From: a bacterium
GTDB lineage: Bacteria > Desulfobacterota > DSWW01
Direction: 5' to 3'
DNA: 64,000 nucleotides
Assembly (NCBI GenBank): GCA_015486285.1
Contig: WFRX01000140.1
Span: forward strand, 1,621-65,620
Position 1 is the first letter of the stretch. Every line of letters starts with the position of its first letter. Made by a program: the position numbers and the translations under genes. Below are positions 9,359 to 63,465 of the stretch, in pieces. The notes beneath the pieces were generated by a model. The model was not told the DNA's origin. It did not search any database and worked only from the letters and a program-made list of their open reading frames with translations.

Positions 9359-9423
9359 CAGCCGGGTATGCCCAACGGCTGGAAAGTAGACCGACATGAT
9401 CAGGATGAACTGCTTTCTTCGCC

Positions 9424-9460
9424 GACTTCCCAAAAAGTCCCATTTGCGGCGTTCGGCTTC
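9424..9460 (+). repeat. Copy 1 of a short intergenic repeat family (CCCAAAAAGTCCCATTTGCGGCGTTCGGCTTCATCC)
   Basis: Related copies at 18430-18463 and 24263-24296. Confidence 0.5.
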
Positions 9461-9737
9461 ATCCGTCGTCATTCAACGTACGGGAGGTACGCTTCACCGT
9501 TACATGGATCCCCTTATCCTGCGGAATTGTCGCCTGCGTTGCACCCGGAACTTTTTGAACAGCCTCCAAGAGCCACCTTGTGAACAGGCTCTCAGGCAGG
9601 TCCGGGGGGCCGCGCCCCGTGCTGATGACAACGGCACATGGATATGCCAGACTGCAAGGAGGTCGGGTTTGTAGGTTTGTATCGGTCGTCCGGCACGAAG
9701 GCGGCCTGCGACACCGGAAGACGAAAGCGCCACGGCC

Positions 9738-17035: not shown

Positions 17036-17196
17036 GGAACGAAATGTTCCTGCGTATATGACGGGGCTTTGCGTGCGTGCGCGTGTTGCTCGAGGATTGC
17101 AACGCCTTCAGGATATGTGTTAAACGCATGCATGCCGCTCACATTCCGGCAGCGGTTTCAAAACATCCGGAAGAGAGACGAAGGAGGATGGATCCA

Positions 17197-18420
17197 ATGA
17201 GAGAGTTACCCCCCCGCATGCAGGATCGACTTTACCACGATATGATTCTTCCCGAGGAAACCCTGGAGATTCGGGCCAAGGCGAGGGAGTTCGCGATCCG
17301 GGAGATCGCCCCGCGGGCCTACGAGATCGCCCACACCGAGGAAAGCCGGGAGAGCTTCGCCTGGGACATCTTCCGAAAATTGGCGGAAGAGGACTTCTTC
17401 AAGATCCCCTACCCGGCCGAGGTGGGGGGGCTCGGCTTGAAATATCCGTGCTGTGCGACGGTTGTCACGGTCGAGGAACTCGCCTACATGTCGAACAGCA
17501 TTGCAGCCGTCTATGACGTGCACTGCATCCTGGCCGGCCACGCCCTGGAATACGGCTCGGAACACATCCGGGAAAACTTCCTCCGGCCCATGACCACGGC
17601 CGAAAAGATCGGCTGCTTTGCCACCACCGAACCGATGGCCAGTTCCGACCTCTCCGCCCGCTCGGTGCAGACTCGGGGCAGACGAGAGGGAGACGTGTTC
17701 ATCGTCAGCGGACAGAAGCGCTTCATCACGAATTCCTGTGTGGCCGATTTCGTCACCGCCCTGGTCAACGTCGAGGGCAAGCTCTGCATGATGGTCATCG
17801 ATCTCCACACCGACGGCTGCCGCGTGGGGGAGCCGGATCGCAAGATGGGGAACAAGGGGCAGCTCACCTCGGATATCTACTTCGACGAGGTCGCTGTTCC
17901 CGTGGAGAACCTCATCAGCGACATGGGCAAAGGCCTTCACGTGGCCCTGGGCACACTCACGTACGGCCGCGTCGGGATTGCCGCCACAGGCGTCGGCATG
18001 GCCCAGTCCGCCTTCGACGAGTCGGTGGCCTACATGAAGGAGCGGGAGGCCTTCGGCAGGAAGATCGGCCAATACCAGTACTGGCAGTTCCGTATTGCGG
18101 AGCGGGCGATTCAGATCGAGAACGCCCGGAATCTCTATCTCAAGGCCGCTCTCAGGATGGATCAGGGGGTCGAGTTCCCCGAGCCGGAGGCCGGCGGAGC
18201 CAAGTACTATGCCACCGAATGCGCCGGCGACATGGCCAGGGATGCGGTCCAGATCTTCGGCGGGTACGGATTCATGCAGGAGTTGAGCCACGACAAATCC
18301 CATTACAAGGTCCAGGAGATCTTCCGGGATTTCAAGATCGCCGAGATCTACGAAGGAACGAACGAGATTCAACGCATGATCCTCGCCCGCACGATCTTCG
18401 GCAAGGACTTGACAGGTTAG
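17197..18420 (+). CDS. Acyl-CoA dehydrogenase
   Basis: Full-length ACAD fold: FFKIPYPAEVGGLGL, TEPMASSDLS, QIFGGYGFMQELSHDKSHYKVQEIFRDFKIAEIYEGTNEIQRMI. ATG 17197 is 9 nt after an AGGAGG SD. Confidence 0.9.
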   Translation: MRELPPRMQDRLYHDMILPEETLEIRAKAREFAIREIAPRAYEIAHTEESRESFAWDIFRKLAEEDFFKIPYPAEVGGLGLKYPCCATVVTVEELAYMSNSIAAVYDVHCILAGHALEYGSEHIRENFLRPMTTAEKIGCFATTEPMASSDLSARSVQTRGRREGDVFIVSGQKRFITNSCVADFVTALVNVEGKLCMMVIDLHTDGCRVGEPDRKMGNKGQLTSDIYFDEVAVPVENLISDMGKGLHVALGTLTYGRVGIAATGVGMAQSAFDESVAYMKEREAFGRKIGQYQYWQFRIAERAIQIENARNLYLKAALRMDQGVEFPEPEAGGAKYYATECAGDMARDAVQIFGGYGFMQELSHDKSHYKVQEIFRDFKIAEIYEGTNEIQRMILARTIFGKDLTG

Positions 18421-18429
18421 CAGACTGCC

Positions 18430-18463
18430 TCGAGAGCCCAATCCGCGGCGTTCGACTTCATCC
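18430..18463 (+). repeat. Copy 2 of the short repeat family (GAGCCCAATCCGCGGCGTTCGACTTCATCC)
   Basis: Shares GCGGCGTTCGNCTTCATCC with copy 1; about 25 bp upstream of the DUF1254 gene start. Confidence 0.45.
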
Positions 18464-22393: not shown

Positions 22394-23551
22394 TCAGGAA
22401 GGCCGGCTATAGAATTCCTGCACGGAGGCGACCACCCTGCCCGCGTCTTCGTCCGACATCTCGTAATAGAGCGGCAGCCTCAGCAGTCGGCCGCTCAAGT
22501 CTTCGGTTACGGCCAGATGTCCGGCCGTCCGCCCGTATCTTCTCCCGGCCGGCGAAGAATGAAGGGGCACATAGTGGATCACGGCCAGGATTCCGCAGGC
22601 GTCGAGGTGCTTGATGAGCCGCGTCCGCTCCTCCGTGGTGCGGGCAATCAGGTAGAAAAGATGGCCGTTGGCCACACTGTCGTTTTCCACCCATGGAAGC
22701 CGAACGAGCCCTGCCTCCTCGAGGGGGCGCAGGGAGCGGTGGTACAGGTCGAAGATGCGGCGCCTGGCGGCGATGATCTTTTCCGCCTGCTCGAGCTGGG
22801 CGAACAGGAAGGCCCCCACCAGTTCGCCGGGCAGGAAAGAGGATCCGATATCCACCCACGTGTAATGGTCCACCTCGCCCGCGAAGAACCGGCTCCGGTT
22901 CGTTCCCTTCTCGCGGATGACCTCGGCCCTTTCGACCAGCCGCGTATCGTTGACGAGCAGGGCCCCCCCTTCGCCGCTGATGATGTTTTTCGTCTCGTGG
23001 AAGCTCAGGCAGCCCAGGTGCCCGATGGTGCCGAGGCATCGACCCTGGTAGGTGGACAGCAGCGCCTGCGCCGCATCCTCGACCACCCACAAGCCGTGCC
23101 TCTCGGCGATTTCCATGATCACGTCCATGGCGCACGGTCCGCCCGCGTAATGCATGGGCACGACCGCCTTCGTCTTCGGCGTGATCGCCTTCTCCACCTG
23201 CTGCTCGTCCATGTTGAGGGTGTCGGGCCGGATGTCCACGAAAACGGGACACGCCCCGCGCAACACGAAGGCGTTGGCCGTGGAGACGAAGGTGAAAGAA
23301 GGCACGATGACTTCATCGCCGGGCTGGATGTCGCAGAGGATGGCGGCCATTTCGAGCGCGGCCGTGCATGAATGGGTCAGCAAGGCCCTGGCGCAGCCCA
23401 GGGTTCGCTCCAGCCATGCCTGGCATTGCTTCGAAAAGGGGCCGTCCCCGGCGAGGTGCGAGGAGGCCATGACCGCCTGGGCGATATAGTGCAGCTCCTT
23501 GCCGACCAGGAACGGTTTGTTGAAGGGGATCCTCGTTTCGTTCTTTTTCAG
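22394..23551 (-). CDS. DegT/DnrJ/EryC1/StrS-family sugar aminotransferase (WecE/ArnB-like, makes a nucleotide-4-amino-4,6-dideoxy- or 4-amino-pentose sugar)
   Basis: Near-colinear match to remembered E. coli WecE (IPFNKPF..., LLTHSCTAALEMAA, GDEVIVPSFTFVSTANAFVLRGA, HETKNIISGEGGALLVND, REKGTNRS). No in-frame ATG/GTG/TTG before IPFNKPF; a CTG at 23549-23551 sits 5 nt after a GGGAGGA SD (start uncertain). Confidence 0.75.
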   Translation of the reverse strand: MKKNETRIPFNKPFLVGKELHYIAQAVMASSHLAGDGPFSKQCQAWLERTLGCARALLTHSCTAALEMAAILCDIQPGDEVIVPSFTFVSTANAFVLRGACPVFVDIRPDTLNMDEQQVEKAITPKTKAVVPMHYAGGPCAMDVIMEIAERHGLWVVEDAAQALLSTYQGRCLGTIGHLGCLSFHETKNIISGEGGALLVNDTRLVERAEVIREKGTNRSRFFAGEVDHYTWVDIGSSFLPGELVGAFLFAQLEQAEKIIAARRRIFDLYHRSLRPLEEAGLVRLPWVENDSVANGHLFYLIARTTEERTRLIKHLDACGILAVIHYVPLHSSPAGRRYGRTAGHLAVTEDLSGRLLRLPLYYEMSDEDAGRVVASVQEFYSRPS

Positions 23552-23583
23552 GGTGTCCTCCCGGTCTCCTCGATACGCGGATT

Positions 23584-24237
23584 TCAGTCGTCGAAGGACA
23601 GCGTCTTCTTGACGACGGCCGGAACACCGGCGATCAGCGCATGGTCCGGCACGTCTTTCGTAACGACGGATCCCGCGGCGGTCTGCACGTTCATGCCGAC
23701 GCGGACCCCGTCGATGCAGGTCGTGTTGATGCCGAGAAAACAACACGGACCGATTTCGGTATGTCCGGCAAGGTTTACGGCCGGTGCGCAGAATGTATGG
23801 GCCCCGATCGTCACATGATGCGAGACGAAGCACCGGGAAGACAGGAGCACGTTCTCCCCGACACGGGCATGCATGTCGATCGTGCAGTCGACCAGCACGA
23901 TCGATCCCTCCTTGAGAAGGGCGGACTTCTCCACGTACGAGCTTGGGTGTACGAATGTGGCGATCGGAACGCCCCGTTCCTTCAGGGCCGCATAGATCTC
24001 CCTGCGGAATTTCCTCTGTTTGTATCCGACAGCGATCGCCACGGCGTCGAAGGCCCCTTTCCCGAACGCCGCCGGGATGTCTTTCGCCCCGCCGAGGACG
24101 GGCCTGTCATGCTTGAGCGCGCCCGCTGCCTCGAAATCGTCGAACATGCCGACGATGCTCGCGAATCCGGTCTCTTCAAAATAGTAGATCAGGCGATCAC
24201 TCAGCTCGCCCGACCCCACCATGGCAATCTTCTGCAT
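23584..24237 (-). CDS. Hexapeptide-repeat (left-handed beta-helix) sugar N-acetyltransferase, NeuD/PglD family
   Basis: N-terminal Rossmann-like MVGSGELSDRL plus C-terminal hexapeptide repeats, in a sugar-modification context. Confidence 0.7.
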   Translation of the reverse strand: MQKIAMVGSGELSDRLIYYFEETGFASIVGMFDDFEAAGALKHDRPVLGGAKDIPAAFGKGAFDAVAIAVGYKQRKFRREIYAALKERGVPIATFVHPSSYVEKSALLKEGSIVLVDCTIDMHARVGENVLLSSRCFVSHHVTIGAHTFCAPAVNLAGHTEIGPCCFLGINTTCIDGVRVGMNVQTAAGSVVTKDVPDHALIAGVPAVVKKTLSFDD

Positions 24238-24262
24238 ACGTTCCCTGCTTTACGAGGCCGCC

Positions 24263-24296
24263 CCAAAAGTCCCATCTGCGGCTGAATCGGCTTGGA
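24263..24296 (+). repeat. Copy 3 of the short repeat family (CCCCAAAAGTCCCATCTGCGGCTGAATCGGCTTGG), fused to the left arm of the palindromic element
   Basis: 19-nt identity (CAAAAGTCCCATYTGCGGC) with copy 1. Confidence 0.45.
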
Positions 24297-24475
24297 AAGA
24301 TCGCTGTGGTTCCATGCGGTACTCGAGTGATTCCGTGCAGTCCGGGGTGCCGTCGGAGATTTGCGCCGGGCGACTTCGGGGGAGGGAGAGACGGAGCCCA
24401 AGCAAATCGGAGACGGGATCCCGGACTGCACGGAACGGCAAGCTTCCTGTGAAACATAGCGATCTTTCCAAGCCG
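24286..24475. repeat. About 190-bp nested palindromic (long-hairpin) intergenic element between the GT2 and acetyltransferase genes
   Basis: Outer arms ATCGGCTTGGAAAGATCGCT (24286-24305) / TAGCGATCTTTCCAAGCCGCGAT (24453-24475). Inner arms TTCCGTGCAGTCCGGG (24338-24353) / CCCGGACTGCACGGAA (24417-24432). Further partial symmetry around 24380. Small artefactual ORFs on both strands in the track reflect the symmetry. Confidence 0.6.
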
Positions 24476-24480
24476 CGATG

Positions 24481-25410
24481 CTAGACATCTTTTTCCCGGA
24501 TCAGGTACTGCGGCGCCTGGTTCACCTCCTGAATGATGCGCAGAAGATACTCTCCGATGATGCCGAGCGAAAACATGACGGCCCCCGAAAAGAACAGGAG
24601 GAGAAGAACAAGGGTCATCCACCCGGGCACGGTGATGCGCCCCAGGAAGAAGAGCGTCAAGTAATATCCGCCGAGGGCGAAGGCGATGAACATGCTCAGA
24701 AGCCCCATGAAAAACACCCCTTTCAGGGGAAGGGTGCTGTGATACAGCACGCCGTGAAGGAAGTGCCGGGCGAGCTTTCCCGCCGTGTAGGTCGTTCTTC
24801 CGTGGGGGCGCGGGAGATGCTCTACGGTGATGTTTCCGATCTTGTCCGTTATTTGCAGGATCAGCAGGCCCACCGCGGGGTTCGGTGTGCGCATGTGGAG
24901 GAGGTTTTCGATCACGGCCCGCCGAATGATCCGGAAATTGCTCATTTGAAACACCGGATCCTGCTTGAACATCATGGAAACGAGTCGGCGGTACGCAAAG
25001 CTCCCCGCATTTCTCACCCGGGACTGTTTCCTGGTTGCCGGTGTTCCGCAGACCATGTCGAGCCCTGTCCGGCGAATCTCCTCGATCAATCTCGGGATCT
25101 CCTCGGGCGGGTTCTGAAGGTCATCATCGATCGTGACGACATACTCTCCGGAAGCGAAAGAAAAGCCGCACATGAGGGCGTTGTGCTGCCCGAAATTTCT
25201 CGTGAGCCTGACGATTTTCACCCGCTTGTCCTGCTCACGCAGCGATTGCATGACCTCCCAGCTCGAGTCCCCGCCCCCGTCCTCCACGAGGATCAGCTCG
25301 TAATCGCCCCGCACGCCTTCCAGCGCCTTGTCGATGCGTTCATAGAGTTCCCGCAAGGACCGTTCGCTCTTGTAAACCGGTACAACGATGGAATAGAGCG
25401 CTTCGCTCAC
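24481..25410 (-). CDS. GT2-family polyprenyl-phosphate sugar transferase (ArnC/GtrB/DPM1-like) with C-terminal TM helices
   Basis: YSIVVPVYKSE...LVEDGGGD...TIDDDLQNPPEEI GT-A motifs plus two C-terminal TM segments. GTG start overlapping the Kce stop. Confidence 0.8.
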   Translation of the reverse strand: MSEALYSIVVPVYKSERSLRELYERIDKALEGVRGDYELILVEDGGGDSSWEVMQSLREQDKRVKIVRLTRNFGQHNALMCGFSFASGEYVVTIDDDLQNPPEEIPRLIEEIRRTGLDMVCGTPATRKQSRVRNAGSFAYRRLVSMMFKQDPVFQMSNFRIIRRAVIENLLHMRTPNPAVGLLILQITDKIGNITVEHLPRPHGRTTYTAGKLARHFLHGVLYHSTLPLKGVFFMGLLSMFIAFALGGYYLTLFFLGRITVPGWMTLVLLLLFFSGAVMFSLGIIGEYLLRIIQEVNQAPQYLIREKDV

Positions 25411-52241: not shown

Positions 52242-52319
52242 TGGCGTCCCCAACCGGATTCGAACCGGTGTTGCCGCCGTGAAAGGGCGGTGTCCTTGGC
52301 CAGGCTAGACGATGGGGAC
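52242..52319 (-). tRNA. tRNA-Glu (anticodon UUC)
   Basis: Minus-strand sequence GTCCCCATCGTCTAGCCTGGCC...CCGCC-CTTTCAC-GGCGG...GGTTCGAATCCGGTTGGGGACGCCA; 7-bp acceptor stem, loop CUUUCAC. Confidence 0.85.
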
Positions 52320-52383
52320 GTCTGGTGACTGCGCTATACGAAAAAGATGGAGTGCTCGACCCCTGTTTTCCCTGAGGTCCGGC

Positions 52384-52459
52384 TGGTGGGCCGTGCTGGA
52401 CTCGAACCAGCGGCTCTCTGCTTAAAAGGCAGATACTCTACCGACTGAGTTAACGGCCC
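52384..52459 (-). tRNA. tRNA-Lys (anticodon UUU)
   Basis: GGGCCGTTAACTCAGTCGGTAGAG...TCTGC-CTTTTAA-GCAGA...GGTTCGAGTCCAGCACGGCCCACCA. Confidence 0.85.
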
Positions 52460-58303: not shown

Positions 58304-58393
58304 GGAGAGATGGCCGAGAGGTCGAAGGCGGCTGACTCGAAATCAGCTGTACCGCTTGCGGTACCGGGGGTTCGAATCCCTCTCTCTCCGCCA
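58304..58393 (+). tRNA. tRNA-Ser (anticodon CGA)
   Basis: GGAGAGATGGCCGAG...GCTGA-CTCGAAA-TCAGC, long variable arm, ...GGTTCGAATCCCTCTCTCTCCGCCA. Confidence 0.85.
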
Positions 58394-63066: not shown

Positions 63067-63161
63067 GGAGAGATGTCCGAGCTGGCCGAAGGAGCACGAT
63101 TGGAAATCGTGTAGGCGGCCTCAAAGCCGCCTCGAGGGTTCGAATCCCTCTCTCTCCGCCA
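63067..63161 (+). tRNA. tRNA-Ser (anticodon GGA)
   Basis: GGAGAGATGTCCGAG...CACGA-TTGGAAA-TCGTG, long variable arm, ...GGTTCGAATCCCTCTCTCTCCGCCA. Confidence 0.85.
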
Positions 63162-63182: not shown

Positions 63183-63465
63183 AGCTTGGCCGTGCTAGAC
63201 GGGGAATTAGCGGTGCCCTTTACCCGAAATCCGCTTATGCGGGGTCGAATCCCCTTTTGAGGCGCCTGTCTGGTAGGGGCCTGAGCGCAAAGGGCAAAGT
63301 TGAGAACCGGGACCCACGCAACAGATGGCTGCCGAACCCCGCCAGGTCCGGAAGGAAGCAACGGTAGGCAGTTTCGTCTGTGTGCCGTGGAATCTCCTGG
63401 TTTGATTTGTCCTTCTCGTTTCCGCCCTGTTGGACGGTGTCGAAATCGGGTGCATGGCCAAGCCC
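63183..63465 (+). ncRNA. ffs: Signal recognition particle RNA, long (Bacillus-type) form with 5' Alu domain
   Basis: Domain-IV core CCAGGTCCGGAAGGAAGCAACGG at 63342-63364. The 5' region GCCGTGCTAGACGGGGAATTAGCGGTGCCC...GGGGTCGAATCCCC resembles the Bacillus scRNA Alu domain as I remember it. Terminal helix 63184-63191 GCTTGGCC pairs with 63456-63463 GGCCAAGC, followed by TTTTTTT. The gene lies immediately upstream of dnaX. Confidence 0.75.

Follow-up and report, generated by a model that had tools for sequence, protein, structure and literature searches.

A hairpin behind a glycosyltransferase stop codon in a Desulfobacterota operon is probably one copy of a dispersed, REPIN/MITE-like palindromic repeat family

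Why should an operon of otherwise overlapping genes be opened by a long palindrome? We asked this of a 64,000-nucleotide (nt) stretch of DNA from a Desulfobacterota bacterium of the lineage DSWW01 (assembly GCA_015486285.1, contig WFRX01000140.1, positions 1,621 to 65,620), hereafter called the window. Here the family-2 glycosyltransferase gene GT2 (24481-25410, minus strand, PF00535 match) is followed by a hexapeptide/PglD-type acetyltransferase gene (23584-24237, minus strand), and a spacer of 243 nt separates the GT2 stop from the acetyltransferase start. This gap is an exception in this stretch of the cluster, because the genes upstream overlap by 4 nt (the preceding gene and GT2, 25407-25410); a second gap, of ~113 nt, lies further along between the acetyltransferase and DegT genes. 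A first-pass annotation had described a nested palindromic element that interrupts the operon at this point and had read it as either a mobile repeat of the MITE type (miniature transposable elements with inverted repeats) or a structured intercistronic RNA. The interruption and the palindrome were both confirmed. The hairpin is one member of a dispersed family of non-coding palindromic repeats, here called family B, and probably a mobile element resembling REPINs (paired repetitive extragenic palindromic (REP) sequences) and MITEs, in uncultured Syntrophobacteria/Thermodesulfobacteriota.

The spacer is filled by an imperfect hairpin of 188 nt (24288-24475) with its centre of symmetry near 24381. 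On the operon strand, the 5' arm of the outer stem (24451-24475) begins 5 nt past the GT2 stop codon and pairs with the 3' arm at 24288-24312 (25 nt, 92% complementary); the inverted-repeat search and the fold agree on both. The inner pair (34 nt, 85% complementary) joins 24402-24435, which holds a covarying helix and the start of the apical module, to 24331-24364. The apical loop (24372-24395, from the fold and the consensus structure) reads UCCGUCUCUCCCUCCCCCGAAGUC on the operon strand, where C and U predominate; its complement is rich in G and A. The whole spacer folded to a single long hairpin on either strand, with free energies of -118.7 kcal/mol for the minus strand, which carries the operon, and -124.8 kcal/mol for the plus strand. 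The z-scores were -6.3 and -6.5, respectively, and none of 200 shuffled sequences folded as well.

Orthologous loci were reached through the acetyltransferase protein. The spacer is identical in three metagenome contigs of the same strain, and among relatives it exists in three states. In L008 and L009 (acetyltransferase 76% identical) it measures 43 bp and contains no element. In L004 (82% identical) it holds a different element of ~125 nt, belonging to a family that we call A, and the same family-A element is present in L005-L007 (79% identical). In L010 (75% identical) it holds a homologous hairpin whose apex is identical to that of the window, whereas its arms differ yet stay complementary. 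The same site is thus empty, occupied by family A, or occupied by family B according to the relative, a difference that speaks for mobility.

A wider search used an exact 20-mer from the apex (24389-24408) and a collection with one genome per species. It returned 64 loci, 36 of them in the Syntrophobacteria metagenome-assembled genome (MAG) JAQYVQ01 ("J") and 24 in the Thermodesulfobacteriota MAG CAYZMM01 ("C"), which is the genome of L010; four further MAGs had one match each. The 20-mer also matched at least 120 metagenome contigs, and extra copies with 1-4 core mismatches were found in the flanks of matched loci. The window itself has one copy, both by repeat search and by a later covariance model (24329-24438, minus strand, 118 bits). 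Single copies are present in L046 (CAVOZJ01) and L054 (CAWJPQ01), from MAGs labelled Alphaproteobacteria and Gammaproteobacteria, respectively; mis-binning, mislabelling or horizontal transfer could account for them. Viral contigs searched with the same 20-mer gave no match, and a phage origin was rejected on this ground.

The genes ahead of family B copies are unrelated to one another and include kinases, acyl-CoA ligases, aldehyde ferredoxin oxidoreductase and Ni superoxide dismutase. Filled and empty sites were seen in the pairs L061/L063 and L058/L049. On the metagenome contig L184 (2750-11795), seven catabolic genes form a cluster that encodes a pair of acyl-CoA ligases, a hydrolase, an acyl-CoA dehydrogenase, a ferredoxin and an aldehyde ferredoxin oxidoreductase together with an SCP2 protein; full, internally deleted or truncated copies lie in four of its six intergenic spacers. 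Contigs that start or stop inside the element are common (L003 at position 1 and many of L076-L195, e.g., L082, L087, L097, L102 and L149), as expected of a repeat, and assemblies of this lineage are therefore repeatedly broken by family B. As a non-coding sequence that is dispersed, ends in inverted repeats, reaches tens of copies in a related genome and is present or absent at orthologous sites, family B agrees in the main point with the earlier proposal of a MITE-type mobile palindromic repeat. Its hosts are uncultured sediment bacteria related to sulfate reducers, its habitual site is the stop codon of the gene in front, and the window copy is a passenger in the GT2-acetyltransferase operon.

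Aligning 44 copies set the termini. Family B is ~204-205 bp long, with the 5' consensus CTAGnGGnnnGAC..GGAAAT.. and the 3' consensus ..TTnCCnGTCGnCCCnCTnG; the 5' terminus, CTAGnGGnnnGAC..GGAAATnTCGCTATGTTTC, has its complement at the 3' end. By this alignment and by the counts of terminal tetranucleotides, the window holds a full copy of ~204 bp on the minus strand (24281-24484), running from a 5' CTAG to a degenerate 3' terminus, ..GATTCAG. The hairpin as originally delimited stands, but the true element extends slightly beyond it and takes in the CTAG in which the GT2 stop lies. Among all copies the 5' tag is NTAG in 47% (CTAG 22, TTAG 8 and ATAG 5), CTAG accounting for 22 of 76. Read on the complementary strand, the 3' end is CNAG, which looks like a decayed CTAG.

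From the outside inwards, the arms in the 44 copies consist of the terminus, a poorly paired middle segment, an inner helix of 23 bp, a 3+3 internal loop and the apical module, which comprises GATTTGCTTGGGC, a C-rich loop and GCCCGGCRCAAATC. The outer arms are moderately conserved. Each arm is ~75 nt long and not self-complementary, so that only the whole element is a palindrome. The apical module, GATTTGCTTGGGCTCCGTCTCTCCCTCCCCCGAAGTCGCCCGGCGCAAATC in the window (24358-24408, minus strand), was delimited by (near-)invariant columns in two alignments and is carried by two arm architectures, the second being an element of ~115 bp with unrelated arms and the same module. Loops of 15 nt between the core halves are of the 'CGAAG' type found in the window and those of 18 nt of the 'CTACAAAG' type; further classes carry nested palindromic insertions of 22 nt (L015, L038, L041, L057, L065 and L073), ~55 nt (L079 and L183) and ~114 nt (L016, L043, L045 and L096), always at the same point, after CCCCCTACAA. 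Common loop insertions make subfamilies recognisable. The arms of the six copies with the 22-nt insert differ as much as those of any other copies. Either insertions gather in the apical loop as a hotspot, or it is the target of a third mini-element. Many copies are decayed, truncated or internally deleted. We considered whether the core could be a young insertion into older "empty" hairpins and rejected this, as the only coreless copies (L130 and L184) are internal-deletion derivatives; the derivative in L184 has CTAG at both ends.

The position of the copies relative to genes is strongly constrained. In the genome-derived set, 45 of 61 copies have an upstream open reading frame (ORF) on the same strand that ends at their 5' terminus, compared with 4 in the reverse orientation; when the same set was re-analysed with another ORF criterion, 26 of 48 copies had the stop 74-76 nt ahead of the core. 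An independent metagenome set gave 32 of 61 at this distance, and the mirror test at the 3' end gave a flat profile of no more than 2 copies per distance. Within the register 72-78 of the metagenome set, the stop was TAG in 27 of 38 copies, against a background TAG frequency of 38% in long ORFs of the same loci. The GT2 stop (TAG, 24481-24483, minus strand, from the ORF and its PF00535 match) is the 5' tag of the window copy and lies 75 nt ahead of the core, the modal register of the family. Only one copy was in a divergent (promoter) spacer. Orientation tracks the neighbouring gene far more than the replication strand: on the pattern strand, GC skew was positive at 70 loci and negative at 45, and replication strand was rejected as the cause. 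A coding extension or stop-codon readthrough, including that of the pyrrolysine type, was also rejected, since the frame after the stop codon was no more open than the other two (median open lengths of 55, 58 and 70 codons in the three frames, none preferred).

From these features we infer that the family is propagated at the DNA level, most probably by the strand-specific placement of a folded single strand beside a TAG, on the model proposed for GTAG-tagged REPs and their REP-associated tyrosine transposases (RAYTs). Strand-specific insertion by a TAG would explain both the anchoring and the orientation lock without any host function: the harmless landing sites would be stop-codon or intergenic TAGs, and those at stop codons would set the direction. 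In the window, the element may have landed on the TAG stop of GT2, or may now supply it, and the conserved apex may be the recognition site of the mobilising enzyme or of some host factor.

Several points weigh against this account. No transposase came to light in 1.4 Mb of loci, where a crude regular-expression scan for HUH/Y motifs and RAYT-like ORFs, a weak test, was empty. The filled and empty orthologous spacers gave no cleanly alignable pair, and a target duplication (CTAG or TA at both ends) is inseparable from the inverted-repeat termini. Neither arm is itself a small palindrome of the REP type, and in place of GTAG the tag is NTAG, most often CTAG. The orientation of known single-strand transposons goes with replication, whereas here it goes with the neighbouring gene far more than with the replication strand. 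Part of the apparent invariance of the core stems from the exact 20-mer search, and a mismatch bias in the inner stem, described below, speaks against an effect at the RNA level.

Alternatively, family B could be a classical MITE that depends for its movement on a DDE transposase, of the IS630/Tc1 or IS5 type, and is inserted by cut-and-paste into TA or CTAG with duplication of the target, the hairpin then being a by-product of long terminal inverted repeats. The termini would suit this: the inverted ends extend to CTAG on both sides, with CTAG at the 5' end at the frequency given above and CNAG at the 3' end, and the L184 derivative is bounded by CTAG twice. A non-coding element of ~205 bp in such copy number is also typical of MITEs such as Chunjie of Geobacter (PMC10969869). 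However, symmetric cut-and-paste should yield both orientations, and the observed ratio is at least 16:1 in two sets; the centre rather than the termini is best conserved; the short subfamily has the same centre and other termini; and family A has a stop codon at its 5' end (15/18) without a matching sequence at its 3' end. The 1.4 Mb of loci contained no full-length element with family B ends, and no arm motif far from a core apart from those of deletion derivatives. The model thus fits the CTAG...CTAG ends and misfits the orientation lock and the conserved centre, and we regard it as unlikely.

In the stem, pairing is preserved while both sides change. In the 44-copy alignment, the inner helix was paired in 93.8% of cells, and two-sided changes occurred in 22 of its 23 pairs; one pair appears as UA 14, GC 13, CG 12 and AU 4 times with a single mismatch. 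The covariation score was 0.279, compared with 0.119 for column shuffles (none of 500 reached it) and ~0.07 for slid partners. The two apical helices were invariant in these copies, an invariance that the exact 20-mer search partly built in; nevertheless, in bystander copies with 1-4 mismatches in the 20-mer region, the apex was still much better conserved than the arms, and the same held outside the probe region; copies found independently of the probe retain the greater part of the module.

Such conservation could mean that a once mobile family has been domesticated, its copies now being kept by the hosts as structured 3'-UTR or intercistronic RNA modules. The long stem would then display its loop, which is invariant, C-rich and anti-Shine-Dalgarno-like, to ribosomes, other RNAs or a protein and would set the stability of the mRNA, its termination or the translation of genes nearby. 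Apart from the apical module, whose conservation far exceeds that of the arms even beyond the probe, this idea can draw on the strict lock of orientation to transcription, on the near absence of copies from divergent spacers and on the cluster in L184 with its four occupied spacers out of six. J and C (or CAVORA) have at least eight occupied sites in common, with flanking genes 73-86% identical, where ~0.25 would be expected by chance, and the stems at these common sites are still more than 90% paired, with 35 two-sided, pair-preserving changes versus 18 broken pairs.

The orthologous arms, however, resembled one another no more than arms from random J x C pairs did (inner arms 0.727 vs 0.721, outer arms 0.583 vs 0.576), so that evolution in place is inseparable from replacement or re-insertion at the same stop codons, and replacement at the same sites can mimic compensatory change. 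Compensatory evolution in place was rejected as the sole account for this reason, despite the many double changes. In the inner stem of 117 distinct copies (equivalent to 24411-24433 and 24333-24355 of the window), A.C mismatches exceeded G.U pairs two to one on the mRNA-sense strand (87 vs 42), an asymmetry to which founder effects contribute as a confounder and which is absent from the whole arms (171 G.U versus 188 A.C). A selected sense-strand RNA helix usually shows the opposite, and the excess also runs counter to the deamination bias that would be expected. A comparison of folding free energies between the two strands of the copies is confounded by the invariant G-rich loop. The frequency of decayed, truncated or internally deleted copies, close relatives lacking the hairpin at the GT2-acetyltransferase locus and the lack of an Rfam match also speak against domestication, which we consider doubtful, although somewhat less so than the transposase-driven MITE.

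However the element moves, it lies inside an operon and would be co-transcribed within the polycistronic RNA, which makes a transcript effect plausible; the RNA would hold an imperfect stem of ~90 bp from 5 nt past the UAG. By analogy with other families, this could act as a 3' stem-loop of the GT2 cistron, serving as an exonuclease barrier and/or as a site of RNase III cleavage or attenuation, and would partly uncouple the expression of GT2 from that of the acetyltransferase. The earlier suggestion of a structured intercistronic RNA is plausible to this extent. It does not hold for a dedicated attenuator or riboswitch: many unrelated genes precede the element, and a search of the whole window against Rfam 15 gave no match for it at the gathering threshold, the region yielding, at E-values up to 10, only microRNA-precursor noise of 14 bits against a 66-bit cutoff. 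A regulator specific to the sugar-modification cluster of GT2 and the acetyltransferase (an attenuator, riboswitch or processing site) would suit the intra-operon position and the very stable fold. It is already contradicted by the family distribution, the element following dozens of unrelated genes, and the orthologous operons of close relatives do without the hairpin, so that with no Rfam match either we hold it to be extremely improbable. A consensus scan for promoters and terminators found no site in 24281-24484, and there is no U-tract of the kind required of an intrinsic terminator, the family consensus ending in ..CCCACTnG without a T-run.

An imperfect palindrome directly 3' of an ORF, in fixed orientation and with arms that vary yet stay paired, also recalls an integron attC site, and L184 alternates gene and repeat as a cassette array might. 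The termini, however, lack the RYYYAAC / GTTRRRY boundary consensus, the neighbours are ordinary syntenic metabolic genes rather than cassettes, and no integrase was seen among the loci examined. A DNA-level protein-binding site, like the gyrase or integration host factor (IHF) sites of bacterial interspersed mosaic elements (BIMEs), predicts by itself no orientation lock. We rate an attC-like or DNA-binding site as very improbable.

The first-pass annotation had also held that the hairpin shares its terminus with a small intergenic repeat family. This must be revised: the flanking motif at 24261-24282 is the solo end of the separate family A. The motif, CCCCAAAAGTCCCATCTGCGGC, does recur at 9429-9450 with 2 mismatches (chance expectation 0), and the site at 18430-18463 is related through the adjoining GCGGCGTTCGRCTTCATCC segment. 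Family A is ~125-150 nt long with the inverted ends GGAGGCTGTTCAAAAAGTCCCATCTGC... / ...GCATCTGGAACTTTTTGAACAGCCTCC, or a CAGGCCG variant. Its solo terminal repeat beside the hairpin (GAGGCCGCCCCAAAAGTCCCATCTGCGGC, 24254-24282, plus strand) matches the left end of full copies in L004, L005, L053 and L056. The window also contains a full-length copy (9422-9567, plus strand; nhmmer match 9428-9566) and a left-end fragment that starts at the TAG stop of the ORF 17077-18420 (18420-18463, plus strand). In 1.34 Mb of loci, 22 copies of family A were found. A stop codon stands directly before the 5' end in 15 of 18, TAG in 12, and the 3' ends in this set showed no consistent flank. In the closer relatives L004-L007, family A occupies the GT2-acetyltransferase spacer in place of family B (e.g., L004:4856-5029 and L005:9840-10000). 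The two families share the stop-codon habit and are unrelated in sequence. A bolder and rather doubtful thought is that together they represent an undescribed kind of stop-codon-seeking, orientation-locked mobile hairpin, in which the selected unit is the C-rich apical module on interchangeable, covarying stems; behind it would stand either an unknown strand-specific enzyme that lands at TAG or a domesticated, genome-wide 3'-UTR RNA module controlling mRNA ends.

Downstream of the family B copy, the acetyltransferase has a Shine-Dalgarno-like AGGGAA (24241-24246, minus strand), ~43 nt from the element, and its ATG at 24235-24237 (minus strand, from the ORF list). Further along, L004-L010 have an ORF of 588 amino acids (aa) without a Pfam match between the acetyltransferase and the DegT aminotransferase; the window lacks it, the 113-nt gap (23471-23583) being left at this position. 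An LPG_synthase_TM gene that follows DegT in these relatives is also missing from the window. Elsewhere, the window has a full-length "large" bacterial signal recognition particle (SRP) RNA (63190-63457, plus strand, 176 bits) and four tRNA genes; the coordinates listed with the SRP RNA are 52245-52459 (minus), 58304-58390 (plus) and 63067-63158 (plus).

For annotation, the odd 243-bp gap in this polysaccharide-modification operon is explained by a passenger repeat and not by a dedicated regulator, and the same family accounts for frequent assembly breaks in MAGs of the lineage. The REP/REPIN/MITE group gains a well-delimited family from an uncultured sediment lineage, with a covariance model, two arm architectures and the sister family A. 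Its near-absolute stop-codon orientation lock and its conserved apex on freely covarying stems make it a test case that bears on whether such repeats persist by way of movement or by acting on transcripts. Family B itself appears to be undescribed, as there is no Rfam model and no matching family was found in the literature searched, including a paper on the multicopy nucleotide sequences of Geobacter, which describes none (PMC2700814). Nevertheless, it belongs to a well-known kind (REP/REPIN/MITE), and its TAG-stop habit has a REP precedent; on present evidence, the orientation lock, the apex on two arm types and the reversed wobble asymmetry do not make a new category.

Among known systems, Chunjie, a MITE found in Geobacter uraniireducens and compared by description rather than by sequence, has a host of deltaproteobacterial grade, a length of ~178-235 bp and one copy inside an operon, with 38 full and 57 partial copies in all (PMC10969869). 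Unlike family B, it has clear terminal and direct repeats and was recently active; stop-codon anchoring and a conserved apex were not reported for it. Like family B, the Correia (NEMIS) elements of Neisseria and the ERIC/YPAL elements of enterobacteria are imperfect palindromes, 100-200 bp long, that have inserted between genes or beside them. They have no sequence similarity to family B, insert at TA in both orientations and are best conserved at their termini. Correia and ERIC elements are co-transcribed long hairpins in which RNase III cuts or a site for RNase E is exposed (PMC10969869, PMC2229807), and the effect of ERIC depends on orientation (PMC2229807, PMC10969869). By this analogy, a stem like those of Correia, ERIC or REP/BIME can protect the upstream 3' end, be an RNase III substrate or attenuate read-through (PMC2229807, PMC10969869, PMC3049150). 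The gene-repeat-gene arrangement of L184 likewise resembles operons rich in REP/BIME. SPRITE, BOX and RUP of Streptococcus pneumoniae are also small structured repeats enriched downstream of genes, and SPRITE lies near the 3' ends of coding sequences and may be co-opted as a terminator (PMC3049150). Their orientation merely mirrors the coding-strand bias (~60%), and family B, unlike them, is GC-rich and has no U-tract.

The closest parallels are the GTAG REP dimers, or REPINs, whose RAYTs are Y1 enzymes like those of IS200/IS605. RAYT nucleases cut REPs at the tag on single-stranded DNA, GTAG REPs lie near the 3' ends of upstream ORFs, and their termini often provide the TAG stop codon of the flanking ORF (PMC3733652). 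Family B likewise has a tag ending in TAG at its outer end or ends, often the stop of the flanking ORF, and lies close to the upstream 3' end, between genes in the same direction or convergent genes. Head-to-head REP dimers have conserved spacers and can form one large stem-loop (PMC3733652), and family B similarly joins two inverted arms through a conserved spacer. REP/REPIN copies number in the tens to hundreds and are long-lived (PMC3733652), and REPIN-RAYT systems are described as persisting very long (10.1101/2022.05.22.493013). The differences lie in the arms, ~75 nt long instead of REP palindromes of 20-40 nt; in the tag, NTAG and mostly CTAG instead of GTAG; and in the conserved part, which in family B is a structured apex of 51 nt common to two unrelated arm types. 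Its orientation lock is also stronger than any that we found reported for REP dimers.

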